Origin: a virus
IMG/VR virus record: IMGVR_UViG_3300009285_000883
Span: 7,639-71,638 of that record
Length of the DNA stretch: 64,000 bases
Direction: 5' to 3' (one strand)
The notes beneath the pieces were generated by a model. The model ran no database searches. It saw nothing but the letters and a program-made list of their open reading frames with translations, and was not told where the DNA came from. The position numbers and the translations under genes were made by a program. This document shows positions 4,351 to 62,676 of this stretch, piece after piece. Numbering within the stretch: the first letter of the stretch is position 1; every line of letters begins with the position of its first letter.

Positions 4351-5481
4351 ATGATGCGTTACGTGAATTGGGGCGCAGCGATTGCGCTACAGACAACCCC
4401 GTTTGGTGGGCCCGTGCCTTGCGTGGTAGGCGCGCCGGGTCAGGCTAAGACGGCGTATGGCAGAGCTGTGTCTGCCGCCAGTGGTCGACGTTTCATCCAG
4501 ATGATTCTCAGGCAGATGATGCCTGAGGATATCAAGGGTGTGCCATCACCTGATGACATTGTGATTGATGGCAAGGTGTACCGTGGCTGCCGTTACCTGC
4601 TCAATGAGGACATGCTGGCAGCCAAGCACACGCCCAGTTTTGTGCTGATTGACGAGTTCAATCAGTCTGGTGACGACGTGTTGGGTGCAGCGCAGGAGTG
4701 GATTAACAGCCCGCCCGAGACTGCCTGGGTGATGGCTGCCATGAACCCTGTGGAGATGAGCACTGCGGGACGTGAGTTAGCGCCGCCAGTGGTCAACCGC
4801 ATGTGCATCCTGCCTTGGGAGCGGTTGATTGTCACACGCCGTGCAGGCTGGCTGCGTGGGTTTAAGAACTACCCATGCCCTGAGTTCCCTATCGTGCCGC
4901 TTGATTTCCAAGACACGATGGGCCCTGCTTGGGGCCAAGTCATGTGTGACTTCGAGGATGACAACACCGAGCTGTTTGGGGACGACGCATTCCCCAAGGA
5001 TATCAACCTTGCGTGCAATCCTTGGCCGAGCGAGCGATCGTGGGAACACGTTGGAATCTTGATGGCAGCCTGTGATGCGGTGGGGGCTGGCAACGACGTG
5101 AAGGCTCAGCTTGTGTCAGGATGTGTGGGTGAAGCGGCCATGCGTAAGTTCATGCTGCATCTCACGCATCGGGGGCTGCCAGACTTCGAGACGCTGTTGG
5201 CGATGCCGCACACGCTGAAGCTGGATGTGACACGTTACGATCTGTCGCGTGCGATTCTGACAGGCGTGATTGGCCGGGTGAACGCTGAGCAGACTCCCCA
5301 ACGCTGGGAGGCTGCGTGTGACGTGATTGAGAAGGCGAGTGAGCAGTCAATGGAGACTGCCGCCACGGTGTACGGTGGGTTGATGAAGGCGAAGCCGCAA
5401 GGTTACATGCCACGCTCACGCAATGGGCAGTGGAAGGATCTGCAAGGGCTCATGCTGAATGACGCTCACAAGCAGGCGTGA
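4351..5481 (+). CDS. MoxR-like AAA+ ATPase
   Basis: Walker A GAPGQAKT, Walker B VLIDEFN, AAMNP sensor, PVVNR Arg finger, PSERSWE motif. Confidence 0.85.
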   Translation: MMRYVNWGAAIALQTTPFGGPVPCVVGAPGQAKTAYGRAVSAASGRRFIQMILRQMMPEDIKGVPSPDDIVIDGKVYRGCRYLLNEDMLAAKHTPSFVLIDEFNQSGDDVLGAAQEWINSPPETAWVMAAMNPVEMSTAGRELAPPVVNRMCILPWERLIVTRRAGWLRGFKNYPCPEFPIVPLDFQDTMGPAWGQVMCDFEDDNTELFGDDAFPKDINLACNPWPSERSWEHVGILMAACDAVGAGNDVKAQLVSGCVGEAAMRKFMLHLTHRGLPDFETLLAMPHTLKLDVTRYDLSRAILTGVIGRVNAEQTPQRWEAACDVIEKASEQSMETAATVYGGLMKAKPQGYMPRSRNGQWKDLQGLMLNDAHKQA

Positions 5482-5570
5482 TTTCACGAGCGACGGCCCG
5501 ACACTCAGCCTGTGCTTGGGGCAGGCTGAGACTCGGTTTGTTTCTCACTCACTCAGTGGAGGCTCTGATT

Positions 5571-7130
5571 ATGGGCAAGCTCAAAGTACCGATTGAGCTA
5601 TCGGAGGCACGTTTAGCAGCGTGTCGAGTGTGGCCTGAAGCGTCACACGTGATTATGAGCATGGTTCCGGTTGAATCACCGGGGCTGGCGCAGCGGGCAG
5701 CAGGCTCGATCTGCGTGGACCAGTATTGGCGACTGTACTTTGACCCCCAAGCATTCTTGGAGCGGTCAGTGGTGCAGCGTATCGCCACGATATTGCATGA
5801 GACGGCGCATCTGCTTGGGCGGCATCATGTGCGTGCCAAGCGGTACGTGGCGCCAGACGATCGGCAGGCATGGTTTGATTGGAACTGTGCTTGTGACATG
5901 GCAGTGTGGGGCCTGATTAAGGCTGCTGGGATGCCTGTGCCTGAGACGGCTGTGACGGCTGAGCGGGCAGGCTTCTCTGAGAATCTGTCTGCGGAGCAGT
6001 ATTTCAGGCTGATCCGAGACAAGCGTGAGCAGGAGCGTCAGCAGGCTCAGGAGCAGGCTGAGCAGGATGAACAAGAGAACCAAGGAGACAGCGATGGTAA
6101 CGACAGCCAAGAGCCTGACGATGGAGATGGAGCTGGAGATTCTCAAGCGTCAGATGAAGACAGTGATCAGTCAGATGATCAGTCTGAATCAGACAGTCAG
6201 GGAGATCAGGCTGGAGAGTCAGGAGAAGGCCAGTCTGACGACGGATCAGATTCGGACGCTGGATCGCAGGATGACGCTGACGAGTCAGGCAGTGACAGCG
6301 ATGACGGATCAGATGGTGGAAACGCTGGAATGCCTCAGCCAGGAGCCGGGGTAGAGGGTGGGTCGTGCGCTGATGGGGTGGCCCGAGACTGGGAGCTGCC
6401 TGCGCCTCAGGGTGATGACAGCGCCGCCAGTCAGGCTGACAAGCAGGAGGACACGCCTCCTGTGGTCGAGCAGTGGAAGCAGGAGATTCTGCTGCGTAAC
6501 GCTGCCGATCGGTTGGCTGCCAGTGGTAAGGGCAGTGGCTCAGGCATGTGGCGTGAGATGGTCGAGCACTATCAGGAGCCTAAGCTGGACCCGCGCAGGC
6601 TGTTGCAGAAGACGCTGAGCAGGCAGCTTGGCAACTTGCAGGCTGGGTGTGGCCGGTTCACGTATCGTCGACCAGCGCGCCGCCCTTCTTTGGGTGGCAC
6701 ACTCAGGCCGCGCAGCTTTCAGCCTGTGCCAAGGATTCTGGTCATCATCGACACGTCAGGCAGCATGAGCAGCGAGGAGATGCGTCTGGGCGTGGGGCTC
6801 GTGAGCAAGTGCATCAACGCGCTCAGGCTGCAAGACGGTGTGCGTGTCATGGCTGGCGATGACATGGCGCAGTGGGACGAGCAATGCTTCAACCCGCGTC
6901 ACATCAGCCTGATCGGCGGGGGTGGGACGGACATGGCTTGTCTGATCGAAGCTGCCGCCAGCAAGCCTCAGCGTGAGCGTCCCGAGCTGATTGTGGTTGT
7001 TACGGACGGAGAGACAGGGTGGCCGAAAACACGTGTTGCGATGCCTGTGGTGGTGGCGCTGACACGTGATTCGGAGTATGCCCGATTCTTCCCGGTGCCT
7101 GACTGGATGGAGAGTGTCAAACTTTACTAA
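5571..7130 (+). CDS. Metallopeptidase (HExxH) plus VWA domain protein, DUF2201-like
   Basis: ILHETAH zinc motif, WNCACD, acidic linker, MIDAS motif IIDTSGSM, GGGGTD, VVTDG; GGAGG RBS before ATG 5571. Confidence 0.85.
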   Translation: MGKLKVPIELSEARLAACRVWPEASHVIMSMVPVESPGLAQRAAGSICVDQYWRLYFDPQAFLERSVVQRIATILHETAHLLGRHHVRAKRYVAPDDRQAWFDWNCACDMAVWGLIKAAGMPVPETAVTAERAGFSENLSAEQYFRLIRDKREQERQQAQEQAEQDEQENQGDSDGNDSQEPDDGDGAGDSQASDEDSDQSDDQSESDSQGDQAGESGEGQSDDGSDSDAGSQDDADESGSDSDDGSDGGNAGMPQPGAGVEGGSCADGVARDWELPAPQGDDSAASQADKQEDTPPVVEQWKQEILLRNAADRLAASGKGSGSGMWREMVEHYQEPKLDPRRLLQKTLSRQLGNLQAGCGRFTYRRPARRPSLGGTLRPRSFQPVPRILVIIDTSGSMSSEEMRLGVGLVSKCINALRLQDGVRVMAGDDMAQWDEQCFNPRHISLIGGGGTDMACLIEAAASKPQRERPELIVVVTDGETGWPKTRVAMPVVVALTRDSEYARFFPVPDWMESVKLY

Positions 7131-21129: not shown

Positions 21130-21912
21130 TCACAGGTCTCCGTTCATGGGTGCGCGAGATAGCAACTCATCGAAGTTGCTAATCTCGTTTTTGAGAATCT
21201 TCACGAAGTAGCCCACAGCATTGCGTGGGCTGCGCTCAGCCGTGCGAACTCCATTCGCGGCGCTGAACGCGGATGCCTGAGAGATCAGGCCAGCCGAAAC
21301 ACACCAAGCGACCCGGCGCACGATGGCGTGGTCGCCCTTGGCTTTGATGATGCTCAGGAGGGATTGCTCCAGTCCGTGGACCTCCCCCCGCCTCTTAATC
21401 TGATCAGATAAATCCTGTTCCTGATCCTGTTCCTGTTCCTGATCCTGGATGAGGCATTCCTTTGCCAATGGTATTTCTGATACCTTTCCGAATGCTTTGC
21501 TAAAGGCATCCGCAAAGGAATTGCCTAAGGTATTCGCGAAAGACCTAAGTCTTTGCTCCACAAGGACTTTCGTCTCACATTCGGGAAGCATGTCCAAGCA
21601 CTTGACCCACGCCGTCATCTGGTTCGGGCAACTTGGCCGGTTGTACTTGAACCAATTCGTCAAAACGATGAGCCGTTTGTCGTCGTACTCGATGCACCCG
21701 ATTTTGCGCAGTTCGGAGAAGCACTTTTGAAGCTCCTTGAAAGGCATTGCCAATGCCTCTGCCAATACCATTGGCGATGCCTTGAGGCATCCTATCGCCG
21801 TGGTCTCAGGGCTGGTCAGGAGATACAGAAAAAGGAGACGACCGTTCCTGGATAATCCCAGGAACTTTTCGTCGTGCCAGATCCTGACATCAACAATTCT
21901 GAACCGAGACAT
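21130..21912 (-). CDS. Phage replication initiator (replisome organiser)
   Basis: IW.DEKF..LS..GRLLFLYLLT winged-helix N-terminus, NW.KYN, QDQEQEQ linker; upstream of dnaB. Confidence 0.8.
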   Translation of the reverse strand: MSRFRIVDVRIWHDEKFLGLSRNGRLLFLYLLTSPETTAIGCLKASPMVLAEALAMPFKELQKCFSELRKIGCIEYDDKRLIVLTNWFKYNRPSCPNQMTAWVKCLDMLPECETKVLVEQRLRSFANTLGNSFADAFSKAFGKVSEIPLAKECLIQDQEQEQDQEQDLSDQIKRRGEVHGLEQSLLSIIKAKGDHAIVRRVAWCVSAGLISQASAFSAANGVRTAERSPRNAVGYFVKILKNEISNFDELLSRAPMNGDL

Positions 21913-21967
21913 AGTTATAGTCCCACGTGTTACGCCGACATTGATTCGGCAATACATTCGTTGTTGA

Positions 21968-23497
21968 TTAACCGTTTTGCATGGCGTTCAGCTCGCGCCC
22001 GAGATTCTCATCACGTGTCGCTTCGGCAGTCAGAATGAACACGCCACGCTGTTTGGCATGCTCGTGAATGAACTTGCGGTTCCACACGTCCACGCCTTCC
22101 CACGCCTCCTGCGGAATGAACAGCAGACCACCCTGGCCGACGCGCTCAACACCGATCTCAATGGCGATAGCCCATTTTTCCGTGGCACTCAGCTCGTGAT
22201 ACGGGGCCCACGTGTCTTTGCTTTCCACGAAGCCATACACACGCTTTCCACCGGGCTCCGTGGCGATCTTGACCCACTTCGATTCGATCGCGTCCGACAG
22301 CACGTGATCGGTAGCAGAAGCGATATTACGGAGTTTTTCCGCCGTCTCGCGCCGCATCGCCGCCGAGTCCTCGAACGCCTTGACGGACGCTTGTTTCATG
22401 CGCGCATCCCGCACGCGCACGCCATCCTCCATTGCCGACTTGGCCGCATGAAACGCGACCTTCCACTCCTCGATCTGCTCGGGCGTCGGACACTCGTACT
22501 CCTCAGCTTCCGTAATCGCCTTGAGACAAGCAGTGCGGCGCGCCACGTGTGTTTCGACGTTGTTGGCGTTATCGCTCGCCAGCCTCAGCTCAGCGCCAGC
22601 AGTCGCGATCTCACGCTGGCACAGTGCGATCGACTGCTCCAGTTGACGAAGCTGCAACACTAATTCGTCGTGATGCTTAATCAGACCTGCGTGTTTTTCT
22701 TCCGAGTCCTTGAGCGCCTTTTTAGCGACCTTATTGTCGGTCGGCACGTTGCGCTCATCCCAGTTCTTCAGCTCACGCTTGGCCTCTTCCGCACGCTTGG
22801 CCTTGTCCGCTGCTGTGTCCACACGCTGGCAGCCTGTGGCGTAGTTCCGCTGAGCGGTGAAGTACGCATCGTTCAGCTTCTCCGCGTCGTGCTCCTTGGT
22901 CATGTCCACCAGGGCGAGCTGCTCACGCAAGGAGTCGGCTGCCACCTGATCGCGGTCGGCACCTCCCTCCCAAGTGCGAGCCTCAGCCTGATAGTCCCGA
23001 GCAATGCGGGTCGCCATCTCGACCAGATCCGAGCACTTGAGCGCCTCTTGCGACACGATCCGCTCGAAATCATCCTCATTGAACTCGGGGCGGGCCTCAA
23101 ACAGGGCACGGTCGGCCTCCACTCCGGTCAAGGAGATGAGCGCCTTAATCCGCCGCTTGTCGGCTGCCACCTCATCCTTGACGCCGGGGTCCACCAGGGA
23201 GGCGAGGTTCAGCTTGCCCTCCAGGTGGTCACACGCGAACTCACCAGCGGTTCTGGTCTGTTTCGGGTTCAGCGACACGTGCACTCCGAGCCCGTCGATA
23301 CGGCCCTTCTCCGTGCCATTACGGAGAGGTAATCCACCCTCTCCTGCTGCCACGCTAGCCAGCGACTTGATCAAGATGGACTTGCCGCATCCGTTCGGCG
23401 CCACGATGGTCGTCACTCCGGGCGACTCCAGCTTGAACGTGAAGTTCTCGATGGGGCCAAGGTTTTCGACCTCGATTTGCTGATGTTTTTCTTTCAC
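21968..23497 (-). CDS. Rad50/SMC-like ATPase with a long coiled coil
   Basis: IEVENLGPI, Walker A APNGCGKS, central coiled coil, degenerate ABC signature LSATE. Confidence 0.75.
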   Translation of the reverse strand: MKEKHQQIEVENLGPIENFTFKLESPGVTTIVAPNGCGKSILIKSLASVAAGEGGLPLRNGTEKGRIDGLGVHVSLNPKQTRTAGEFACDHLEGKLNLASLVDPGVKDEVAADKRRIKALISLTGVEADRALFEARPEFNEDDFERIVSQEALKCSDLVEMATRIARDYQAEARTWEGGADRDQVAADSLREQLALVDMTKEHDAEKLNDAYFTAQRNYATGCQRVDTAADKAKRAEEAKRELKNWDERNVPTDNKVAKKALKDSEEKHAGLIKHHDELVLQLRQLEQSIALCQREIATAGAELRLASDNANNVETHVARRTACLKAITEAEEYECPTPEQIEEWKVAFHAAKSAMEDGVRVRDARMKQASVKAFEDSAAMRRETAEKLRNIASATDHVLSDAIESKWVKIATEPGGKRVYGFVESKDTWAPYHELSATEKWAIAIEIGVERVGQGGLLFIPQEAWEGVDVWNRKFIHEHAKQRGVFILTAEATRDENLGRELNAMQNG

Positions 23498-23526
23498 TGC
23501 AATTCTCCTAAAAGTTGGGGTTGAAA

Positions 23527-24052
23527 ATGGACGCTCTATCGTTCTGTTTCAATCGCGAAGACTGGCTGCGCTCAAAGGTTATGATTCAGTCCAACAGCTT
23601 GGCTGCGCTCGTTCTTTATGGTTCAGTCTGAGAGAATGACTACGATCTGGCATTTTCGTTCCATCATTGAATCTGACTTCGTTCTTCTATTGAGGTTCAA
23701 TCCCACGGAATGGCTACGTTCATCACCGATGCTTCAGTCCCGTAAATTGGCTGCGATCCCAGAAGTTGTTTCTGTCCTTTGGTTTGTCTGCGATCGGTCA
23801 AGATGTTTCGATCAGGAGTTTTGGCTGCGATCCCAAGGCGTGGTTCTATCGCCCGAATAGGCTGCACTCTCTGGCAATGATTCAGTCCTGGACTTTGGAT
23901 ACATTCTCTCGACATGGTTCGATCAACCAATTTGGTTGCGCTCAAAGGGACTGGGTATCCGCAGGCTTGGCTGCGTTCAACATTGCTGGTTCGGTCTGCG
24001 GGCTTGGCTGCATTCGTCTTGTGTGTTTCTGTCGAGAAGCATGATTGCGCTC
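23527..24052 (-). ncRNA. TIGR-like dual-repeat, dual-spacer array 1 (14 units, 37-nt period)
   Basis: 11-nt repeats (+ strand ~TGGCTGCGCTC) at 23563, 23600, 23637, 23674, 23711, 23748, 23785, 23822, 23859, 23896, 23933, 23968, 24005 and 24042, alternating with ~TGNTTCNNTC repeats; 8-nt variable spacers; strand inferred from the flanking genes. Confidence 0.85.
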
Positions 24053-24296
24053 ACTGTGTTGTGCGAATCTTCTTCAGTGCCTGCTTCGCCTCACGTGCCA
24101 AATTCATCATCACTTCAGGGTCATACACAGATCCCTTCAGTGCGTTGTGCATGCGAAGCACAAACATGCGCAAATGTTGCAGGTCTTCCAAGGCTATGCG
24201 CAGTTCCTCGTTGACGATCGGCAACTCCTTAGCAAGATGGTCTCGCTCGTCGCGGAGATGCCGTATCCAAGCAGCGTCAACTTTTTGTGTGGCCAT
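24051..24296 (-). CDS. 81-aa coiled-coil protein embedded between array blocks
   Basis: ATG 24296 preceded by GGGAGCG; TGA overlaps the first repeat of array 1. Confidence 0.6.
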   Translation of the reverse strand: MATQKVDAAWIRHLRDERDHLAKELPIVNEELRIALEDLQHLRMFVLRMHNALKGSVYDPEVMMNLAREAKQALKKIRTTQ

Positions 24297-24297
24297 A

Positions 24298-24375
24298 AAA
24301 ATCGCTCCCAATGCGTGTTTCAATCATTGAACTTGGCTGCGCTCACGCTCTAAGATTCAATTCCTGAGCATGGCT
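24298..24375 (-). ncRNA. TIGR-like mini array (2 units)
   Basis: ATCGCTC-ccaatgcg-TGTTTCAATC-attgaact-TGGCTGCGCTC-acgctcta-AGATTCAATT-cctgagca-TGGCT. Confidence 0.8.
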
Positions 24376-24566
24376 TAATGACGTTGCAGATAAACGAACC
24401 AGTTCGGCGCAGGTGTCCCTCCCCAAACGGTTCCATCCTGACGCACTAAGAACACCGGTATGTCGCGCTTGCAAAACGGACAGATGCTGTTCTTTGGAGA
24501 CTCGGGCTTGCGGTCGCTCTTTTCAATGACACGACCAGTAAAGTGCCTGTAGTTGACACACATCAC
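24375..24566 (-). CDS. Small Cys/His protein directly downstream of the Nop-domain gene
   Basis: CVNYRHF...CPFC; GAGGAG RBS. Confidence 0.55.
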   Translation of the reverse strand: MMCVNYRHFTGRVIEKSDRKPESPKNSICPFCKRDIPVFLVRQDGTVWGGTPAPNWFVYLQRH

Positions 24567-25499
24567 TCACTCCTCCTCTTCGGCAAGAGCTTCCTCCTGC
24601 ACTTCATCACGCGACCTGCGTTTGACCTTCTCACCTTCCTTGAGGTCGCGCAACGACTTCCCCGTCATCGGCCAAGGCCAATTGGGAATCTCGATGAAGT
24701 GACGGTGATCTCCGGGGCAGTGCTCGAACACGTACGGAACTGGCGGGTCTTCACCAAAGAAGTCGTAGTACATCACGTGATGCAAGTGAGACAGGAAGAT
24801 CTTCACTGCAAAGCGGCGCGCACGTGCATGTAGATGGCCTGGAGGAAGCGTACCGTCCTTGTAGTGCTTGTAAGCAACTGTCGTCTTACCGACCTTCTCA
24901 GCACGCTCAGCGGCCAACGTCTTGAACTTCCCCTCACCGCTGGCAGCAATCTCCGCATCCTTGCGCTGACGATAGAGCTGCCCGTACACAGCCCCATCAC
25001 GGTTCTGCGTCTTGCAAAAACTTTCTCCGCATTTAAAAGCGCATAAACAGCGAAGGAAAGCATTCCACGGACGCGGCTTTCCCTTCTCCCAAACCATCGT
25101 CGGGTCCAACCCGGCGAACCTCCAGAAGTGTCCAGCCGTCTTGCACTTGCTCACATCCAAGTGAGAGAGAAGACCAGCAGAGATTACCGGGCCGATGCCA
25201 ACCTGAGACTGCATCCACTGCCCCACCGAATACTCGCTCGCAAACGCGCCAAGAGCACGCTTGATCGCGTTTTCCACACGCGTCATTTCGTCGTTGACCC
25301 ACATCAAAACGCGGCCCGGCTCACCTGCGCCAAGCGAGCGCAACTGGTTCGCAGTCGAAATCCTGTAGGCTTGGATACTGTAAAAGTTATCGACGAGATA
25401 ACGAGCCTGCGCGCGATCCATGAGCCTCGACGCGGCCATGAGATCCTTTGTGAGTTTACGTGCGATTTCGATAGGTGTGTCGTAATCACTTCTGTCCAT
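24567..25499 (-). CDS. IS110-related Nop-domain protein with no nuclease domain (TasA-like)
   Basis: Helical N-terminus (RYLVDNFYSIQAYRI..NQLR), GIGPVISAGLL, FWRFAGLDP, LY..RK, GHLHARARRFAVKIFLSHL; no DEDD RuvC domain and no catalytic SG motif; flanked by dual-spacer arrays. Confidence 0.85.
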   Translation of the reverse strand: MDRSDYDTPIEIARKLTKDLMAASRLMDRAQARYLVDNFYSIQAYRISTANQLRSLGAGEPGRVLMWVNDEMTRVENAIKRALGAFASEYSVGQWMQSQVGIGPVISAGLLSHLDVSKCKTAGHFWRFAGLDPTMVWEKGKPRPWNAFLRCLCAFKCGESFCKTQNRDGAVYGQLYRQRKDAEIAASGEGKFKTLAAERAEKVGKTTVAYKHYKDGTLPPGHLHARARRFAVKIFLSHLHHVMYYDFFGEDPPVPYVFEHCPGDHRHFIEIPNWPWPMTGKSLRDLKEGEKVKRRSRDEVQEEALAEEEE

Positions 25500-25532
25500 T
25501 TCAAGTCTCCTGAGGTTTGTCTACGAATCGTC

Positions 25533-25970
25533 TTAAAAGTTGTTGTCAATCGCGGCCTGAACTACTGACAGCGGAATGGAACGACGCACCAGTTCCGCAC
25601 ACTCGCGGCGTGCTGTGGCGCGCGCGGCAGCGGCATCGGCAGCGGCATAGGCATAGGCAGCGGCAGCGGCAGCGGCAGCGGCCTTGCGAACTTGTTCGAT
25701 AGTCGCCTCACCGCGCGTCCATGCTCGTGCCATCTCAATCGCCGCGCGTGGTCGATCCTCTCCCTCAGGCACGTACTTCAATGCCGTCTCGGCGCAGTCG
25801 CACGCTGCCAATACGACCAACTTGCGATCTACTCCGACGCGCGCCGCAAACCACAGCATCCAATCGCCGCGCTCGCATTGCGCGTAGGCTTCCTCCAGCG
25901 TCTTTCCATCACACCAATTCTGCGCGTCGCAACACGCATGCAACTTGGACAGTAACCTTGATAGGTCCAT
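25533..25970 (-). CDS. Imm5-like, Ala-rich phage protein
   Basis: CERGDWMLW, ACDCAE, DRPRAAIE.ARAW, poly-Ala tract. Confidence 0.75.
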   Translation of the reverse strand: MDLSRLLSKLHACCDAQNWCDGKTLEEAYAQCERGDWMLWFAARVGVDRKLVVLAACDCAETALKYVPEGEDRPRAAIEMARAWTRGEATIEQVRKAAAAAAAAAYAYAAADAAAARATARRECAELVRRSIPLSVVQAAIDNNF

Positions 25971-25990
25971 TTCAAATCTCCTAAGTTAGA

Positions 25991-26591
25991 AAAAACGCTC
26001 CACCAAACTGCTTCAATCATTCCACTTGGCTGCGATCTGCAATATAGATTCACTAGACACTTTTGGCTGCACTCGTCTCCTACGGTTCTGTCCCGAAATG
26101 TGATTTCGATCACACGGCATGATTCATTCGTAAGACTTGTCTGCACTCTCCCAAAATGCTTCTTTCAGTTCATATGATTACGTTCCGTGTTGTTGCTTCT
26201 GTCGAGGCAGATGGCTTCGTTCATCTACGCTGGTTCGTTCGCCTTCCACGGCTTCACTCGCTCCGCGTGATTCGATCTTCTGGTGAGGTTGCGTTCGTGG
26301 CGATTGATTCATTCGTTTTCCCTGGCTGCACTCCGTGACTGTGTTTCATTCATCGACGAAGATTGCGTTCCAACAGTATGATTCCGTCTTCGATCGCGAC
26401 TTCGATCCTATGGTTTGCTTCTATCAACAAGAATGGCTGCATTCTGGGTTTATGGTTCATTCCTAAATCTTGATTTCGCTCCGCATATCTGTTTCAATAG
26501 CGCGGCTTGGCTACGCTCATCGTCAATGCAAACTCGGTGGTCCTGGCTGCGCTCTGGAGGTTTGTTGCGATCCTGTTATGTGGCTAAGCTC
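25991..26591 (-). ncRNA. TIGR-like dual-repeat, dual-spacer array 2 (16 units, 37-nt period)
   Basis: 11-nt repeats every 37 nt from 26027 to 26508, then 26544 and 26581; 10-nt repeats between them; 8-nt spacers. Confidence 0.85.
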
Positions 26592-26593
26592 AG

Positions 26594-26869
26594 CTAGGAG
26601 ATTGTGATTCCAGGGTGATTGTTGTTCTGGTTGAACACACAGTTTTGAATCGAGACAAACGGCTTCGCTGGTTCCAATGCTTTCGCAAGCGACTGGCACG
26701 CATGGGCGACAGCTACAATTGCTTCAGCGCGTTTGTCCTCGTCCATCTGCTTTCCAGTTTCCAGCCAGATTCCAGGGAACTCTTTGCACAACGGTGATGA
26801 AGCAGCGTCGACCTTGTTTTCTGTCTTCGCGGTTCGTCGTCGTGGTTGTGCAGGTTTCTTTTTTGCCAT
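26594..26869 (-). CDS. Hypothetical protein ending 2 nt before array 2
   Basis: GGAGA RBS; basic N-terminus. Confidence 0.65.
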   Translation of the reverse strand: MAKKKPAQPRRRTAKTENKVDAASSPLCKEFPGIWLETGKQMDEDKRAEAIVAVAHACQSLAKALEPAKPFVSIQNCVFNQNNNHPGITIS

Positions 26870-26924
26870 CTTGTTTCTCCAGGTAGTTGTGGTGCTGCCG
26901 ATTGAACGCTGGCAGCGTGGCGTT

Positions 26925-28019
26925 TTACGATTCCTCAGGCAACGATTTCAAGTGCGCATCGCGGTATTCATTCGCCTTGGCGTACAACGCTTCAGGCATT
27001 TCGTCCTTGTGATCAAAGACGTGCGTGCGCCAAACGAAGCGAGCATCGACTTGATTCTGAGTGCGCCCCAACTCGTACACGAACTCGCGAAGTCTATCGG
27101 GCACCTCCTCTAGCGACTTCTCCTCCGTCGCCTCGGCGGTCTTCTGAGGCTCCGTTTCTTTCTCCTTTTTCGGGGCCTTTTCCTTCTTCAACTCTTTCGC
27201 CGCCTTCTCTGCTTTTGACTCACCCTTGGGGGCCTCCGCGTTCTCAGTGCCGGGCACCTTGAACTCGAAGTAATCCTCGGGGTTCGCCATGCCGTCCTTG
27301 ATCGACACGAAGATCTTCCGCAGAGACAGCATGTGTTGCTCGGTGAAGCTCTCCACTTTGCGCTGCATGCGTTCTTCGATCATCTCGGAGGTGACGCCGA
27401 AGTTTTTGTAGACTTCAAGCATCTTGCGAATGCGATCGACAAGCGGTTCCTTGTGTCCTTCCGTGAGCGTCTTCTCGCACTGCTCGACCGCGATGTCCTG
27501 CACGTCCTTGGGGATCACCGCGAGGATGCACGAGCGCTTGCGACGGGCACCTTGGTTCAGGATCATCTCGCTGATGTCACGCGGATCGGTCAGGATGTAG
27601 CTTCCACGCTTGGTATGCCGCATGTGCTTGACCGTGAACATAGTCGAAGATCGTACGTTAGTTTGCATGTCCCAGGCGAAAGCCTCACACACGCTCTCAC
27701 CGTTGACCTGAGACAGCTCGCGAATGCCGTACTCGATATTGCCCCAGCCCTGCGCCATCGCCTCAGCCAGACGCACAGACGGCCCTGTGACCGTCTCGTT
27801 GCCGCGCGGGTACTGGTACATACCCACCTCAGCCAGACCACGACGCTGACATGCCGTGGTGATCTCGCCGATCGACGTGTTCACGTCACGCGGGAACTTC
27901 TTGGCGATCACGATCATCGCCTGCACCTCCTGCGCCTGCCGACTCGCAGCCACTTCCATCAGGTTGTTCTGTCCACGCCGATCAGGTTCATCGACGTGGG
28001 TTGTCAATTCCGTACTCAT
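26925..28019 (-). CDS. Putative single-strand annealing or recombination protein
   Basis: AKKFPRD, YPRG..TVTGPSVRLAE..A.GWGN motifs; near the YqaJ gene; function inferred from context. Confidence 0.6.
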   Translation of the reverse strand: MSTELTTHVDEPDRRGQNNLMEVAASRQAQEVQAMIVIAKKFPRDVNTSIGEITTACQRRGLAEVGMYQYPRGNETVTGPSVRLAEAMAQGWGNIEYGIRELSQVNGESVCEAFAWDMQTNVRSSTMFTVKHMRHTKRGSYILTDPRDISEMILNQGARRKRSCILAVIPKDVQDIAVEQCEKTLTEGHKEPLVDRIRKMLEVYKNFGVTSEMIEERMQRKVESFTEQHMLSLRKIFVSIKDGMANPEDYFEFKVPGTENAEAPKGESKAEKAAKELKKEKAPKKEKETEPQKTAEATEEKSLEEVPDRLREFVYELGRTQNQVDARFVWRTHVFDHKDEMPEALYAKANEYRDAHLKSLPEES

Positions 28020-28025
28020 GTGTTA

Positions 28026-28433
28026 CTAGCCTTTGTGTTGCAGAACGATACTTAAAGAACAATTCTCAAGCGACTTTTCAGCTCCAGTGAGAATCGCCTC
28101 GGCAAACATGCCACCACGTCGCTTAGAAAGCAACGCAACAATCTGCTTCTTAATCAACTCGCGATGATCTTGGACATACTCACGAATGAGTTTCTCCGCT
28201 TCTTCGCGAATCAGTTTGTGGGAGAGGGCTTCCAGGAAAGGTTGCGTGTTGTCATATGAGTAACTTGACACTTTTCCAGACTTGTCGACCTTGATATCCA
28301 AGGCACGTGTCACAATCGCATTGATGATCTTTGCCGGATCACCCATTGCAGCAGCAATCGCTGCCGATAACTGTTGTCGCACGATCGGGTCAATCACATC
28401 CTTTGGGATGTTTACGGTTGCGTTATCAGCCAT
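28026..28433 (-). CDS. Hypothetical protein
   Basis: AAGGGA RBS; KVD..GK.SSY motif. Confidence 0.7.
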   Translation of the reverse strand: MADNATVNIPKDVIDPIVRQQLSAAIAAAMGDPAKIINAIVTRALDIKVDKSGKVSSYSYDNTQPFLEALSHKLIREEAEKLIREYVQDHRELIKKQIVALLSKRRGGMFAEAILTGAEKSLENCSLSIVLQHKG

Positions 28434-28475
28434 GTTGTGGGTCCCTTTCGCTCCGCGATCACACGCGAAGATTGG

Positions 28476-29474
28476 TTACTTGGTCTTGCGTTCCAACAAC
28501 CGTTCGTACGCCTTCCGCTTCACGGAACCGATCTTGGAGCGAACCTCCTCAGCGTCGGCCTCCGTGTAAATCGACTCCTTGACGAGCAGACGGCGCAATT
28601 CCTTTTCGCCACGTGGAAATCGTCCAAGTTCAGCCGATTCCATCTTGTGAATCAGGCGGTTGCGCGCCTCGGTACGTTCCACCTCCAGGGCAGCGATCTC
28701 CTCACCGAGCACCTTGTAGCGCAGCCACAGTTGAAGATCGTCGTCGTCCAGATGAACAGCGGTGTTCGCCACGACGCCGTTGACGATCGACAGCAGTTCC
28801 TTCGTGCGCGGATGCGTCCAGTTCGGCTCTGGCGGTTCGTTGTTCGCGATCCGCTCGACCAGCTCACGCTCGGCCTCCGTGATCGCGTCGATCAGGTCAT
28901 CGTTGCGCAGCACGGGGTAGACTCGCAGCGTGAAGATCCCGAACATCGCGGCCACATCCACCTGATCCCAGCCCATCACAGCCATCTGCTGCTGAGCCTG
29001 AAACAGCACGTCGTCAGGAACCGAATCCGTCCCCTCCTGACCGTACTTACTTTCGTCCTCAACCGAGTACATCCGTGCGGTGGTTGCCTTGACTTCCAAA
29101 CCCTTCCGCTTCTCGCTCAGCACGATCGCATCAGGGGTCGCAGCCATGAACGCATGCTGCGGGTGAAAGAACATGCGGCTGTTCTCAACGCAGTCCACGC
29201 CCATCTCCGAGGCGTACTCGTTGACGATCACCGACTGCATGCGCCTTCCGCGCCGCATCCGCGTCTCCTGCTCCTCCGTAAACGCCACTTCCATGACTCG
29301 GCGCGCACGCAGAAACAGGTCCAGCGACGTGCGGTAATCACTCCTGTTGCACGCCGCCGCCGCGTCCGAAGCGCCAATGACGAGCTGCTTCCCTGGCTCG
29401 TAAAAGCGTCCTTCCAGCCAAGCAGGGTCGCCTTCCAGCGGTCCCTCGATCGGAACATGTGTTGATGTCACCAT
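28476..29474 (-). CDS. YqaJ-like (lambda exonuclease family) recombinase nuclease
   Basis: IGASDAAA, ATPDA, GLEVK, QAQQQM motifs. Confidence 0.9.
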   Translation of the reverse strand: MVTSTHVPIEGPLEGDPAWLEGRFYEPGKQLVIGASDAAAACNRSDYRTSLDLFLRARRVMEVAFTEEQETRMRRGRRMQSVIVNEYASEMGVDCVENSRMFFHPQHAFMAATPDAIVLSEKRKGLEVKATTARMYSVEDESKYGQEGTDSVPDDVLFQAQQQMAVMGWDQVDVAAMFGIFTLRVYPVLRNDDLIDAITEAERELVERIANNEPPEPNWTHPRTKELLSIVNGVVANTAVHLDDDDLQLWLRYKVLGEEIAALEVERTEARNRLIHKMESAELGRFPRGEKELRRLLVKESIYTEADAEEVRSKIGSVKRKAYERLLERKTK

Positions 29475-29833
29475 TATGCGAATTGCCTTTCCACGTGAAT
29501 GCCGTCGTCCTGTGCGGACACGTGTAATCCGCGACGACGACCCGCCACAAACTCCACCAACGCAAGGTTGGCAACGTCCACAAGATGCTCCAAGTTGGCA
29601 TCACGCTCGTACAAGTCGAGACGCGCACGCATCGACTCCACAATGCGGAATGCAAACTTGTCAGGATTGCAGAACAGCCCGTAACGAAACGCACCCAACA
29701 CAAGCCGGTTGCGCATGAGCTGCTCAAATTGATCGTCCCACTCCGACTTGCGGAGGGATTCGAGAGACGGCAGTTGCGAAGGAAACGCCGCCTTCTCAAG
29801 GTGCTCGCGAATGTGCTGCGATACTGTTTTCAT
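29474..29833 (-). CDS. Hypothetical phage protein
   Basis: RNRLVLGAFRYG...NLEHLVDVANLALVEF. Confidence 0.75.
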   Translation of the reverse strand: MKTVSQHIREHLEKAAFPSQLPSLESLRKSEWDDQFEQLMRNRLVLGAFRYGLFCNPDKFAFRIVESMRARLDLYERDANLEHLVDVANLALVEFVAGRRRGLHVSAQDDGIHVERQFA

Positions 29834-29907
29834 GGTGTCACCTCAGGTTGTCCGTGAGGCGCATCAATCCAACCAGCAACAACAGCGCGAGCCCGCCGAA
29901 TAGAATC

Positions 29908-30111
29908 TCAAGCCACGTCACTTCGACCATCGCACTCACCTCCTTGCGAACGTGACTTCTTGATCTCGATCTCAAGGCGGTTGACCTGGATGTCTTTGGG
30001 TGCGTCAATACCGAGACGCACCTTATCCGCCTTGATCTCCACGACCGTGATCGTGATCAGCCCTTCAGCAATCACGATCTTCTCGCCTATCTTGCGAGCT
30101 AGAACGAGCAT
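29908..30111 (-). CDS. csrA: Carbon storage regulator CsrA/RsmA-family RNA-binding protein
   Basis: MLVLARKIGEKIVI...VRLGIDAPKDIQVNRLEI canonical pattern. Confidence 0.92.
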   Translation of the reverse strand: MLVLARKIGEKIVIAEGLITITVVEIKADKVRLGIDAPKDIQVNRLEIEIKKSRSQGGECDGRSDVA

Positions 30112-30175
30112 AAGTTTCCTCCCTGCCTACCAGAGTCCTCGCGCCCAAATTCGATGGACGCTATCGCAAAAAAAA

Positions 30176-30409
30176 CTACTCCCGCAACGTTCTGGGGGTG
30201 ATGAAAGATGGATCGTGGTACATCATCAGAAAGTCACACGGTCCAAATAGATCGAAAGGCACGTCCGACTCGTAGCGGTGAAAAGCCATCTCGGTCAGGT
30301 GCGTGAGTCGCGCCTTGCCGGAGTCGTCCACTACCGGGTGCAGCCATTCCGCAGCCCCGTCATAAGGGCCACCAGAAAACCGCATGAGTCTCGGGTGCGT
30401 CGAGATCAT
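30176..30409 (-). CDS. Hypothetical protein with an FSGGPYDG motif
   Basis: GAGGTG RBS. Confidence 0.6.
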   Translation of the reverse strand: MISTHPRLMRFSGGPYDGAAEWLHPVVDDSGKARLTHLTEMAFHRYESDVPFDLFGPCDFLMMYHDPSFITPRTLRE

Positions 30410-60168: not shown

Positions 60169-60851
60169 TCCCGCAAAGGCTGCTTTTCGTACGTTGGAAG
60201 TCCGGGGATCTCGGACAACGAGATCCCGTTCGACCGAATCAGCTCCACGAGCATCTGACGCCTGTGGGGGTCGCCAGCCGCATCGCTGAGCATCTGCATG
60301 AGCGCGAGTTCCTTCTTGACCCTCAACTGCTCATCCGACAGGTCCAGCACGTTCTCCTGATGCTGGAGCTTGTTCACGTCCATGACCAATTTCGCGATGC
60401 TGCGGAACTGGTCGAGGTTGGTTCTACTGCCAGGGTTCTTGGTGCACGCGGTACGGAGCTGATCCGACCACTCCTTGACGAACACCCGCATTCCCCCGAA
60501 GTCGTACATCAGCTCGGCCAGGAAACTCTCGATGTGTTCGAGAGGTTGCCGACCCGAGGCGACGGATGCGACCTCCTTGCTGAAGTTGTCACACAGCCTG
60601 CCACGTATCTCGTCCAGTTCCTTCTGTGCGACTCCCGAGCGGCACTTCGCACAGAGCGGATCAGTCAGGGTGTCGAAGTGGTCGAATGGCAGCCACATGT
60701 GACAGCCAGTGCATTCCACCTTTCCCTTGTCGCGCACGTCGGGGATGGGGAAGTCATGCTTCTCCCGCGCACGTGCGCGCTCGTCGTACTTGTACTTGGC
60801 TGGAGGCAGATCAAGCACTTCAGTTGTCGGAGGTGACGGCAGTTGCTCCAC
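60165..60851 (-). CDS. Putative terminase small subunit
   Basis: Directly upstream of and ATGA-coupled to terL; CxxC pairs; LSDEQL motif. Confidence 0.5.
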   Translation of the reverse strand: MEQLPSPPTTEVLDLPPAKYKYDERARAREKHDFPIPDVRDKGKVECTGCHMWLPFDHFDTLTDPLCAKCRSGVAQKELDEIRGRLCDNFSKEVASVASGRQPLEHIESFLAELMYDFGGMRVFVKEWSDQLRTACTKNPGSRTNLDQFRSIAKLVMDVNKLQHQENVLDLSDEQLRVKKELALMQMLSDAAGDPHRRQMLVELIRSNGISLSEIPGLPTYEKQPLRD

Positions 60852-62625
60852 TGTCGGTATCCTCCTTCACCTTGCGGCGTTTCTTTTTCGCGGCCTGCTT
60901 TTTCAGTCCGGCGAAATAATCGTGCACGAGGAACATCCAGACGCACGAGCCGTTGACGACCATCGGCTGCATCCCGGCTTCCGCTAAGAACTCGGTGACA
61001 GCCTGGACGACTCCAGGGAACTCCATGCAGTAATCGTGACCGCACAACACGCCGTTCTTCGCCACGTGCGGGAGCCACGCGCGCAGGTCTTCTGCGATTC
61101 CGTCGTATTCGTGACGCGCGTCCAGGAACACGATGTCCACTTCCTGCGGTTCCATCGACCGAGCCACGTCCAGGCTGGCCCCCTTGAGGACCTTAATGTC
61201 TTCATCCAGCAAATTGCCGATGTTCTCACGGAACGTCTCAAACAGGTTGTCGTACCCGTACTGCTCGGCCCACGTTCCGGTGCTGTCTGTGGGAGTGCCT
61301 TCCCACGTGTCGATGCACCAAATGGTTCCACCCGCTTTGCCAAGCCCGTTGTGCAAGGCGATCGCCGACTCACCGACCCATGAACCGACTTCGACGATGC
61401 GGAGTGGCTGCGCGGGGCGTGTCTCTGCGACCATCGAAACGAGTTCTGTCAAGGCGTTGAGATCCAGCGGGGGAGTCATATTGCCAACCGACTTGACCGA
61501 ACGAGGGCCGATCATCCGCTTGATCACGGGAAACGAAAACTTCTTCTCTTCCTGCGGGACGGCGTTCGCTTCCGTCGCTTCAATAGGTTCCTCGTTGAGA
61601 TCCTTGAGAATCTGCTGAATCTCGGCGGGAAGTTCCTCATCCTCCTGCAACGCGGGAAACTCATGCGTGTCTTGCAGCACATCGGTGTAGTCGATCTCGT
61701 GCATCTCATCGCCGATCGACTTGCACTGCTCAACGGCTTCGAGGTAGTGCTCGTTGATCTGCTCCACGAAGATCTGCTCGGGCATCCCGACGCACTTGGG
61801 CTTGTAGTGCCCGGCCCACGCATCCCAGTTGCAGAACACGACGGGTTGCTTGTGCTTGACCAGCCCGGCGAGCTGAATCTCACGTGTGTTCGTCACGTCC
61901 TCAGTGGATGCTTTCTGCGTCTGCTCGCCGTCCGTAAATTCATAGAAGAACCACGACTGCAGGTTGAGCAATCGCTTGGCGCGGTCGAGCGTGATCTTGC
62001 CTTCCTTGAACTCGGTCAGGATCTGCTCCTGCGACTTCTGATGAACTGGCATCAGGTCGAACGAGTCCAGGGAATACATGATGCACCCGGTCGGCCCGGC
62101 TGCGATCGACTGAATCCCCCGCATCTGCGCCGCGTGCTCTCGCGAATACGCCTGGAACGTGATCTGCGGACGATCGTTGTCCGACTCGTTGGCTTCGCCG
62201 TGGAATACGTAGACGTTCTCGAATCCACCCTTGGTCGGATGGGGAGGCGGTCCACAATAAGGCGCGGCAACCACGGTAGGCAGACCTTTGAGCTTGCGCT
62301 CGTACAGGAAGTCAAACGACGTTTTCCAGAACGGTTTGGCCCACGGCTTGGCGCCAAGGTACAGATCAGGAACGTTGTCCGAATCGATCATCACGATCAC
62401 GTCACAGTGGCGATCCTTCGCCATCCGCACTGACCGGTTGCGTTCCATCGTCAGCGGAATGTCACCGAACCGGTTCACTTCGATGCGACCGATTCGTTCG
62501 TCCTTGCTCATCTCCGAGATCGTCTTGGCGTACCACAGCGTGATCTCAGGCAACTGCATGCCGACGCTGCCGTTGCCTCCAAAGGCGTACATCGCAAAAA
62601 AAATGTCGAGCTTCATCGGAATCAT
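60820..62625 (-). CDS. Glycosyltransferase (GT-A-like) fused to a class I SAM-dependent methyltransferase
   Basis: N-terminal ERN...VMIDSD...TED; C-terminal VEVGSWVGES, IDTW, VFLDARHEY, GHDY. Confidence 0.8.
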   Translation of the reverse strand: MIPMKLDIFFAMYAFGGNGSVGMQLPEITLWYAKTISEMSKDERIGRIEVNRFGDIPLTMERNRSVRMAKDRHCDVIVMIDSDNVPDLYLGAKPWAKPFWKTSFDFLYERKLKGLPTVVAAPYCGPPPHPTKGGFENVYVFHGEANESDNDRPQITFQAYSREHAAQMRGIQSIAAGPTGCIMYSLDSFDLMPVHQKSQEQILTEFKEGKITLDRAKRLLNLQSWFFYEFTDGEQTQKASTEDVTNTREIQLAGLVKHKQPVVFCNWDAWAGHYKPKCVGMPEQIFVEQINEHYLEAVEQCKSIGDEMHEIDYTDVLQDTHEFPALQEDEELPAEIQQILKDLNEEPIEATEANAVPQEEKKFSFPVIKRMIGPRSVKSVGNMTPPLDLNALTELVSMVAETRPAQPLRIVEVGSWVGESAIALHNGLGKAGGTIWCIDTWEGTPTDSTGTWAEQYGYDNLFETFRENIGNLLDEDIKVLKGASLDVARSMEPQEVDIVFLDARHEYDGIAEDLRAWLPHVAKNGVLCGHDYCMEFPGVVQAVTEFLAEAGMQPMVVNGSCVWMFLVHDYFAGLKKQAAKKKRRKVKEDTDSGATAVTSDN

Positions 62626-62676
62626 GGAAGGTGTTCTCCACAACATCAAACAAACGGGGTTGACAATCGTGCAGGC

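Follow-up and report, generated by a model that had tools for sequence, protein, structure and literature searches.

Introduction

TIGR arrays are defined by an edge and a loop repeat, each of 8-12 nucleotides (nt), which alternate and are separated by two short spacers, and by a truncated edge repeat that closes the array (PMC12045711). A published catalogue contains 4,126 dual-repeat arrays. The Tas family of proteins that accompanies them has also been published, and its commonest form is the nuclease-free TasA, an RNA-guided repressor (PMC12045711; bioRxiv 10.64898/2026.09.09.750476). Here we describe a locus from an uncultured groundwater tailed phage, which is very probably a dual-repeat TIGR-Tas system of the nuclease-free TasA type, located within a block of phage replication and recombination genes. 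The DNA analysed (the window) is 64,000 nt long and consists of bases 7639-71638 of a 71,638-nt linear virus record (IMGVR_UViG_3300009285_000883), which is 83% complete according to CheckV. Almost all genes in the window are on the minus strand. The gene order is YqaJ/RecE-like exonuclease, phrog_3657 protein, array, Imm5-like protein, tasA, array, AAA_23 ATPase, DnaD-like loader and DnaB.

The closest described systems are those of FpTasA from Flavonifractor plautii and of MbTasA (PMC12045711; bioRxiv 10.64898/2026.09.09.750476), which are likewise phage-carried, solo Nop-type Tas proteins without a nuclease. They share with the window the alternating edge and loop repeats, the two short spacers, the orientation of the arrays on the gene strand, their position on both sides of the gene and the terminal half edge repeat. 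The comparison is with the published description, in which FpTIGR has 18 variable letters, whereas the window has a unit of 37 nt (11+8+10+8). The window also differs in having three sub-arrays with two unrelated small genes between them, and its arrays run into genes with no terminator.

Two nuclease-bearing relatives have solved structures. SpTIGR-TasH from the Salicola phage CGphi29 (PDB 9w03, 9w04, 9vzx, 21kl) is the best structural match to the window protein, and resembles it in its 8+8-nt spacers, its phage origin and a processing-loop tyrosine, Y289 (PMC13421893), which aligns with Y256 of the window protein. Unlike the window protein, which has only about 25 residues at this position, it is a DNA-cutting protein with an HNH nuclease at its N terminus (roughly residues 1-64), and the sequence identity is 21-23%. 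TaTasR from a Thermoproteota archaeon (PDB 9mty) is the best sequence match in the PDB. As in the window, the same boxes occur in its edge and loop repeats, and an additional base pair covaries between the halves of adjacent edge repeats; it differs in its N-terminal RuvC nuclease (roughly residues 1-110), its 9-nt spacers and its 36-nt guides.

More distantly, the IS110 recombinases (IS621, PDB 8wt6; ISCro4, PDB 9t56) have the fold of the RNA-binding domain in common with the window protein, but the latter lacks their N-terminal DEDD/RuvC domain, and there are 32 tandem guides in place of a single bridge RNA. Archaeal Nop5, from the box C/D small nucleolar ribonucleoprotein (snoRNP; PDB 1nt2), has the same arrangement of coiled coil and Nop domain, with 145 residues aligned, and its guides also have two spacers bounded by boxes. 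In contrast to Nop5, TasA of the window has no fibrillarin-binding N-terminal domain, and the published targets of Tas proteins are DNA.

The TIGR-TasA kind was already published in 2025, so that the kind itself is not new and this locus is a well-preserved further example. It may be that 37-nt dual-repeat arrays, or this contig itself, already figure in fig. S4/S5A of PMC12045711 or in the TIGRSafari catalogue (2026 preprint). The value of the locus is that it is a large, well-preserved natural TasA locus with 32 guides, whose 37-nt units imply that dual-repeat guides are not strictly 36 nt. The covariation between neighbouring edge repeats described below predicts guide boundaries and a closing helix without RNA data, and could be applied in annotating other TIGR arrays. 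A programmable DNA binder of 310 amino acids (aa) with a short guide is also of practical interest as a compact repressor.

Structure of the arrays

The arrays comprise 32 units, of which 30 have a length of 37 nt, one of 36 nt and one of 35 nt. They form three blocks on the minus strand, in register at a 37-nt pitch. Each unit is made of an edge repeat (11 nt), spacer A (8 nt), a loop repeat (10 nt) and spacer B (8 nt). The description that follows is based on the 30 units of 37 nt. The edge repeat reads G-A-n-Y-G-n-A-R-Y-C-A, with up to 1.93 bits per position, and the loop repeat G-A-n-n-G-A-A-n-C-A. The edge repeat starts with G (29/30) and A (29/30) and ends with C (30/30) and A (25/30); the corresponding counts for the loop repeat are 27/30, 30/30, 29/30 and 26/30. 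The GA start and CA end common to both repeats thus provide the same box D/box C motifs, as a symmetric dimer requires. Information in the spacers amounts to 0.09 to 0.20 bits at positions 1-4 of spacer A and -0.06 to 0.09 bits at the other 12 positions. All 30 A spacers are distinct, and so are all 30 B spacers.

The periodicity is confined to the locus. When the DNA is compared with itself at a lag of 37 nt, the self-match (148-nt windows) peaks at 0.608, against a mean of 0.253 over the whole window (standard deviation 0.048), and exceeds 0.45 only at 23449-24063 and 25992-26551; lags of 35, 38 and 39 nt give no signal in the window. A 42-nt matrix built from the units scores them at 29.5-44 bits, whereas the maximum in 20 shuffled genomes is 13.3 bits, and no further unit of at least 14 bits was found on either strand of the 71,638-nt record. 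Tandem Repeats Finder did not detect the arrays, because the likeness between units is below 70%, and no Rfam family matches in 23300-26800.

The initial annotation had described 14, 2 and 16 units at a 37-nt pitch with one exception each of 35 and 36 nt, two alternating repeats with two unit-specific 8-nt spacers, and a repeat that is not coding. The unit table, the distinct spacers and the stop codons found in every gene-strand frame all bear this out. Its block bounds also stand, except that array B starts at 24381 and not at 24375.

The ends of the arrays are equally regular. A truncated copy of the edge repeat is present at all three array ends in the window. Taking the window together with its two sister phages described below (L023 and L082), seven of seven array ends contain edge positions 1-5 and no more, and array B opens with positions 6-11 alone. 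The half edge GAGCG ends seven of the eight arrays inspected in the window, L023, L082 and L002 (upstream array), the downstream array of L023 ending in GAGTG instead; the arrays of L023 end at about 2660 and 6458 and those of L082 at about 3423 and 6709. In most cases the terminal half edge passes directly into a T run, behind which lies the ribosome-binding site of the gene that follows. The stop codons of two small open reading frames (ORFs) of 63 and 78 aa fall within the first edge repeat of the next array. Terminator-like sites on the minus strand in 21800-30300 occur at 25190-25174, inside tasA, and at 29898-29883, neither of them at an array end. The related locus L002 has a hairpin and T run after its downstream array.

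Other kinds of repeat were considered. A coding repeat is rejected, since 37 is not a multiple of 3, the spacers are free of information and the gene-strand frames of arrays A, B and C all contain stops (1-11 per frame), even though one frame of array A is open for 117 codons. Replication-origin iterons are rejected in view of the 32 copies with variable cores and the linkage to tasA across the family, and a CRISPR array in view of the two unlike repeats of 10-11 nt and the 8-nt spacers; TasA has no PADLOC match.

The TasA protein

The protein encoded between the arrays consists of a coiled-coil hairpin (approximately residues 29-89), a Nop-type RNA-binding domain (approximately 91-260) and a C-terminal loop containing Y256, H265 and H267. 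A single-sequence phmmer search of the PDB gave TasR (9mty) with an expectation value (E) of 1.3e-10 and TasH with 1.1e-5, and a 53-sequence profile gave 9mty (8.7e-21), TasH (2.6e-8), IS621 (6.8e-6) and ISCro4 (2.4e-5). The AlphaFold2 model is confident (mean pLDDT 90.6, pTM 0.86), and shows a helical hairpin at 29-55 and 62-89. With this model, each of the top ten Foldseek matches in the PDB was a complex of TasH or TasR (E 2e-6 to 2e-5), and ISCro4 and IS621 came next. Alignment with VIA-align gave the same order: TasH (Z 19.7 over 231 residues, root-mean-square deviation 3.5), TasR (18.4), ISCro4 (13.4) and IS621 (13.0).

The fold alignments start at residues 25-28 of the model, which correspond to residues 64-66 of TasH and residue 111 of TasR; model residue 26 is paired with TasH residue 65, and model residue 28 with TasR residue 111. 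They therefore begin past the HNH and RuvC domains of these proteins, and the window protein belongs to the nuclease-free type, TasA. In the alignment of 53 sequences the invariant Y40 is preceded by just 30-79 residues, too few to accommodate a nuclease domain. The initial annotation had noted Nop-like, IS110 C-terminal motifs in the product of 24567-25499 and, for want of a RuvC domain, had assigned it to the TasA type, and the structural matches agree with it on both points.

All 19 family-invariant residues are present in the protein, and the ORF is intact. Of the residues in the C-terminal loop, Y256 is conserved as Tyr in 47 of the 53 aligned sequences, and H265 and H267 as His in 50 and 51 respectively. 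Y256 aligns with Y289 of SpTasH, where Y289 and H296 are reported to form the catalytic pair of guide processing (PMC13421893).

TasA is predicted to dimerise through its central coiled coil. Prediction with two copies gave a median ipSAE of 0.44 (runs 0.44, 0.72 and 0.41), compared with 0.00 for the best of three controls; among proteins of known structure, 20 of 30 solved as one-chain pairs and 1 of 23 solved as single chains reach a value of 0.44. At least 75% of the contacts recur between runs, and the pLDDT of the partner is 77 or more. The predicted interface involves residues 19-82, in the coiled-coil hairpin, and 289-307, in the C-terminal helix. Because Tas dimers have already been solved, the result may only mirror likeness to them, and is not independent proof.

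An IS110 element was rejected as an identity for the locus: the fold match covers only residues 125-320 of IS621 and ISCro4, and there are 32 tandem guides. TasA matches PHROG 4285 (E 1.3e-40), a family labelled 'transposase' in the category 'integration and excision'. This label is probably misleading for nuclease-free, array-associated proteins, and most likely reflects the common IS110-type RNA-binding domain. The same domain accounts for the match to Transposase_20 being weak and that to PHROG 4285 being by name. No PADLOC model matches TasA.

Related loci

A word-index protein search gave 2,697 proteins with E <=0.001 among 6,517 candidates of 170-543 aa, nearly all of them unnamed. Scanning viral contigs with the single protein gave no match, whereas an alignment-based scan of IMG/VR succeeded, and found TasA relatives encoded at 547 viral places. 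The counts of loci given here and below refer to the best 80 of these 547; L082 is a metagenome locus outside those 80.

A periodic array, with a self-match of at least 0.5 at one lag, is present in 74 of the 80 loci: 67 have a period of 36 nt, five of 34 nt, one of 37 nt (L002) and one of 33 nt. Homologous genes without arrays had been named in the initial annotation as a finding that would count against it, and with arrays at 74 of the 80 loci this check did not refute its reading. The self-match reaches at least 0.55 in 70 loci, in 68 of which the in-phase consensus consists of two alternating conserved blocks on the gene strand. Nearly all blocks are of the form GA...CCA or GA...CA, typically GAGCGAGCCA and GAGAGAACCA, in a 10+8+10+8 layout (68 loci). 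In L023 and L080 the 0.55 signal comes from simple 3- or 12-nt repeats. An edge repeat of 11 nt is common to the window, L002, L023 and L082, and it is this length that makes the window unit 37 nt. In five loci (L045, L046, L060, L062 and L066) there are arrays of 34-nt period about 3.5 kilobases (kb) downstream of tasA, not adjoining it, whose two repeats are GAGCGAG(C/T)CA (10 nt) and GAAAAGCA (8 nt).

Two of the related phages are close enough to be treated as sisters. L023 is a 69-kb viral contig, syntenic with the window, with protein identities of 74% for the YqaJ exonuclease, 78% for the annealing-type protein, 68% for the Imm5-like protein, 67% for the AAA ATPase and 73% for DnaB. A matrix scan showed that the same 11+8+10+8 repeats flank its tas gene, the upstream array having 12 units and the downstream one about 25. 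L082, a metagenome contig of 68 kb, is nearer to the window: the exteins of its TasA are identical to the window protein at 145/152 and 141/158 residues (286/310, 92%). It has 13 units directly after tasA and about 10 upstream (8 regular, 1 degenerate); in the upstream array a gene for a 371-aa helix-turn-helix protein and an ORF of 133 aa separate the first unit from the rest.

In both sister phages the TasA frame (L023:3177-5477 and L082:3956-6199) runs for 748-766 aa through an intein of about 420 aa, while the window TasA is intein-free. The inteins contain a LAGLIDADG_3 domain (E 5.9e-9 and 2e-10) and sub-threshold matches to Hint and Intein_splicing. They begin with Cys and end with His-Asn, and are inserted just before the Cys that corresponds to C153 in the window, within a highly conserved motif of the Nop domain. 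A literature search for an intein within TIGR-Tas turned up reviews only.

Pairing between neighbouring edge repeats

The edge repeat is variable at positions 3, 4, 6, 8 and 9. Position 8 of one unit and position 4 of the next can form a Watson-Crick pair in 31 of 32 cases (24 G:C and 7 A:U, the exception being U:U), compared with 16 of 32 for the same two positions inside one edge repeat and 17 of 32 for the reverse neighbour. None of 200,000 permutations reached 31/32. The same pairing, with U:A pairs included, is found in 31 of 33 cases in L023 and 22 of 22 in L082, or 84 of 87 for the three phages pooled. Position 9 and position 3 of the next unit pair in 57 of 87 cases when G:U is included, against a permutation mean of 39.3; 57 was reached by none of 100,000 permutations.

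According to PMC12045711, processed guides start and end in the middle of the edge repeat, and there is an extra covarying pair between different edge repeats. The pairing seen here, together with the array ends, is as expected if the guides were cut between edge positions 5 and 6 and their ends were paired. Among relatives with 36-nt units, eight variable repeat classes gave a cross-unit Watson-Crick pair in 21 of 30 cases versus 10 of 30 within the repeat, and show too little variation; in L002 the edge repeats are invariant.

Proposed mechanism and alternatives

Since the minus strand has neither a promoter-like nor a terminator-like site beside the arrays or in the intergenic gaps of the locus, co-transcription with the neighbouring early genes is inferred: the three arrays would be transcribed on the minus strand together with the flanking genes. 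A search of the minus strand in 21800-30300 found no sigma-70-like promoter. The transcript would then be cut in the middle of the edge repeat, most likely between positions 5 and 6 as judged from the covariation, to give a 37-nt guide of the form 5'-nARYCA, spacer A (8 nt), GAnnGAAnCA, spacer B (8 nt), GAnYG-3'. Its two ends, derived from neighbouring edge repeats, would pair, position 8 of one with position 4 of the following repeat and, in part, 9 with 3. By analogy with TasH, whose mechanism is published, TasA itself probably makes this cut, via a Tyr/His loop containing Y256 and either H265 or H267. One guide would be bound per TasA dimer, joined by the coiled coil as predicted, in the binding mode of the published structures, and the edge and loop repeats would offer the same GA...CA boxes to the two protomers.

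The two spacers are reported to pair with opposite strands of an adjacent site (PMC12045711; bioRxiv 10.64898/2026.08.11.744272). Spacer A would thus pair with one DNA strand and spacer B with the other, at an adjacent 8+8 base pair site. TasA has been described as an RNA-guided non-cutting DNA binder, which in E. coli repressed a chromosomal gene as well as a reporter (bioRxiv 10.64898/2026.09.09.750476). From those assays the complex, having no nuclease, would be expected to bind and block, for example transcription, without cutting.

The Tas-type fold, the alternating repeats with common boxes, the covarying guide ends, the predicted coiled-coil dimer and the lack of a nuclease domain, all defining features of a dual-repeat TIGR-TasA system, are found at the locus, and every checkable part of the original proposal, that a Nop-domain protein flanked by dual-spacer arrays constitutes a TIGR-Tas system, has held. 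Several observations nevertheless weigh against this interpretation. Six of the 80 related loci have no array (self-match <0.5) in the DNA examined. The 2026 preprint (bioRxiv 10.64898/2026.09.09.750476) gives dual-repeat guides a uniform 36 nt, versus 37 nt in the window. The boxes of TaTasR are UG and CCA, as against GA and CA here; box motifs may diverge but covary between edge and loop repeats (PMC12045711). As to the protein, no Nop model in Pfam matches TasA, the sole Pfam match being a sub-threshold one to Transposase_20 (18.9 vs 21.3 bits), and the VIA-align match to archaeal Nop5 is modest (Z 7.4). H265 and H267 lie 9 and 11 residues past Y256, and H296 of SpTasH is covered by no alignment. 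A terminator after the array is described as typical (PMC12045711), but there is no terminator-like site on the minus strand at the three array ends, where genes follow instead. No site with up to one mismatch to 30 of the guides is present in the phage's own 71,638-nt record.

Three other explanations were compared with a TasA system that binds and blocks DNA. One is that TasA is the targeting module only, and that a second protein cuts, recombines or primes replication at the guided site. Candidates for this protein would be the SbcC-like AAA_23 ATPase after array A, the upstream pair of RecE-like exonuclease and annealing protein, and the Imm5-like protein. The locus does lie within a recombination and replication block whose order is kept in L023 and L082, and PMC12045711 raises both non-cleavage roles and partners such as ParB for TasA. 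However, these neighbours are common only to phages whose synteny extends over their full length. Of the 80 loci, one has the Imm5-like gene, two have the AAA ATPase and two the annealing-type protein, and these genes are therefore not family-wide companions; we consider a two-protein arrangement improbable.

The other two are less credible still. A decaying relic, in which the arrays are drifting and TasA is no longer functional, might account for the two units with degenerate loop repeats and altered length (35 and 36 nt), the one truncated edge repeat and the foreign genes inserted among the arrays. It is very hard to reconcile with an intact ORF, a confident model and a full set of 19 family-invariant residues, with 31 of 32 end pairs kept via compensating changes, or with sister phages that retain arrays of the same repeats. 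The guides might instead be directed at RNA, with the complex acting like a box C/D snoRNP or as a translational blocker. The Nop fold and the box C/D-like guide layout are indeed found in snoRNPs too (PMC12045711), but published TasA, TasR and TasH all bind double-stranded DNA with one spacer per strand, and no methyltransferase gene is present in or beside the locus, the nearest having been found at 60820-62649. An RNA target is as improbable as decay, and binding of DNA by a nuclease-free TasA with its guides remains the preferred explanation.

Expression and targets

Runs X8 and X9, which are described as RNA-Seq cDNA but were judged to be probably DNA, gave three contigs that match exactly (151, 151 and 208 nt), at 23851-24123 and 23419-23625. 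These cover array A and its flanks, and are not counted as evidence of expression. Run X10 gave no contig, and no RNA data set was listed with the locus.

Targets were sought with 30 of the 32 guides (two 8-nt spacers each), in both half-site orders; in the phage's own record gaps of 0-2 were allowed and the arrays were masked. Over six arrangements this record has three sites with two mismatches, and 11-18 sites with three mismatches per arrangement, where about 1.1 and about 15 per arrangement respectively are expected by chance (by arithmetic). The array DNA itself contains no site with up to one mismatch and seven sites with 2-3 mismatches, four of which are trivial because they contain the guide's own spacer. 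In 86 related loci (713,953 nt) there was one site with one mismatch, compared with 1.1 for shuffled spacers. In none of these three sets do the sites exceed chance. The initial annotation had suggested a possible role against competing phages or elements, or in gene control; neither role is supported here, and no target was found. A scan of genome contigs for the host gave only a 23-residue match, in an Afipia metagenome-assembled genome, and thus no clue to the host. The GenBank phage collection gave one distant match, in Microcystis phage Mvi-JY20, at 24.5% identity.

Array turnover

The window, L023 and L082 differ in their guides, array size, inserted genes and TasA intein, and so provide material on array evolution. 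Upstream of tasA the window has 16 units, L023 12 and L082 about 10; downstream there are 14+2, about 25 and 13 respectively. Guide acquisition in TIGR arrays has been named as an open question (PMC12045711; bioRxiv 10.64898/2026.09.09.750476).

Between the window and L082, four-fold degenerate sites are 38-66% identical (TasA 45/68 and 37/65, AAA ATPase 102/206, Imm5-like gene 20/53). In a colinear alignment of units, 5 of 28 regular units have a partner sharing at least 10 of 16 spacer letters, one of them 15/16, while by arithmetic about 10 such units would be expected had all of them been orthologous, with drift to about 55% identity. The difference points to some guide replacement between the two phages, and is not decisive. 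Chains of units shared between the window and L023 are within the range of shuffled controls.

It is a speculative idea, and on balance a doubtful one, that TIGR arrays are inherited in modules, each of them a mature guide from mid-edge to mid-edge, which would be gained, lost or replaced as a whole at the processing site. The idea arises because the halves of the edge repeat vary independently and yet match the partner half in the neighbouring repeat, and because array sizes differ, only 5 of 28 units are shared with L082 and genes are inserted at repeat borders. If it were true, the three phages would be the first natural series for working out TIGR guide acquisition.

A degenerate 35-nt unit occurs at the corresponding place in the downstream arrays of the window (23978-23944), L023 (6101-6135) and L082 (6380-6414). 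The copies in the window and L023 have an identical broken loop repeat, GATACCCAG. The window unit adjacent to it (24015-23979) has the same spacer A as the degenerate copy in L023. It looks like an old defective unit, which may have been retained and partly duplicated.

Genes between and beside the arrays

The positions of the arrays, their ends and the genes between them are listed in Table 1.

Table 1. Features of the tasA locus, listed in the direction of the minus strand. Positions are those of the window.
Feature	Position	Strand	Details
TIGR array C, upstream of tasA	26001..26591	-	16 units: 15 of 37 nt, 1 of 36 nt
36-nt unit, second of array C	26554-26519	-	degenerate loop repeat
Half edge repeat GAGCG and T run	25991..26000	-	3' end of last array C guide; followed by ribosome-binding site and ATG at 25970
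Imm5-like gene, 145 aa	25533..25970	-	PF21805, E 5.6e-10; between array C and tasA
tasA, nuclease-free Tas protein, 310 aa	24567..25499	-	between arrays
Zinc-ribbon-like ORF, 63 aa	24375..24566	-	abuts tasA stop codon; likely inserted cargo
TIGR array B	24308..24381	-	2 units; first with 5'-truncated edge repeat overlapping TAA stop of 63-aa ORF
Half edge repeat GAGCGA and T run	24298..24307	-	end of array B; directly before ATG at 24288
ORF of 78 aa (90 aa from TTG at 24323)	24051..24288	-	between arrays B and A; no family
TIGR array A, downstream of tasA	23537..24052	-	14 units: 13 of 37 nt, 1 of 35 nt
35-nt unit, third of array A	23978-23944	-	degenerate loop repeat
Partial edge repeat GAGCGTCCA	23528..23536	-	end of array A; followed by ribosome-binding site and GTG at 23497 of AAA_23 ATPase gene

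The Imm5-like gene has the same position in the sister phages L023 and L082. By tblastn it is present in one of the 80 viral loci, namely L023; L082, outside those 80, has it by Pfam. On this distribution we regard it as a lineage-specific neighbour and no core part of the system.

The ORFs of 63 and 78 aa are likely to be cargo inserted into an array, outside the system proper. They are read in this way because both are absent from the relatives, neither occurring in the 80 related viral loci nor in L082, and because the 63-aa gene is skipped in a related strain. A DNA contig of this strain (run X3, mostly 90-95% identical) joins 24368 to 24574, and is thus without the 63-aa gene; in another contig, with weaker support, 23997 is joined to 24596. 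An Atlas search with the 63-aa ORF gave no score of 0.9 or above. The TGA stop of the 78-aa ORF overlaps the first two bases of array A. Genes inside TIGR arrays sit exactly at repeat borders, both in the window (24375-24566 and 24051-24288) and in L082 (1617-3054), and it seems that cargo genes can land in the arrays and be tolerated there.

Elsewhere in the window, a pair of genes on the plus strand (4351-7130) encodes an AAA_5 (MoxR-like) ATPase and a DUF2201 protein with metallopeptidase-like and VWA-like domains. Neither gene matches a PADLOC model, and the label 'HNH endonuclease' that PHROGs gives to the DUF2201 gene has no support from Pfam. The phage also encodes a homologue of CsrA, at 29908-30111 on the minus strand (PF02599, E 5.2e-18).

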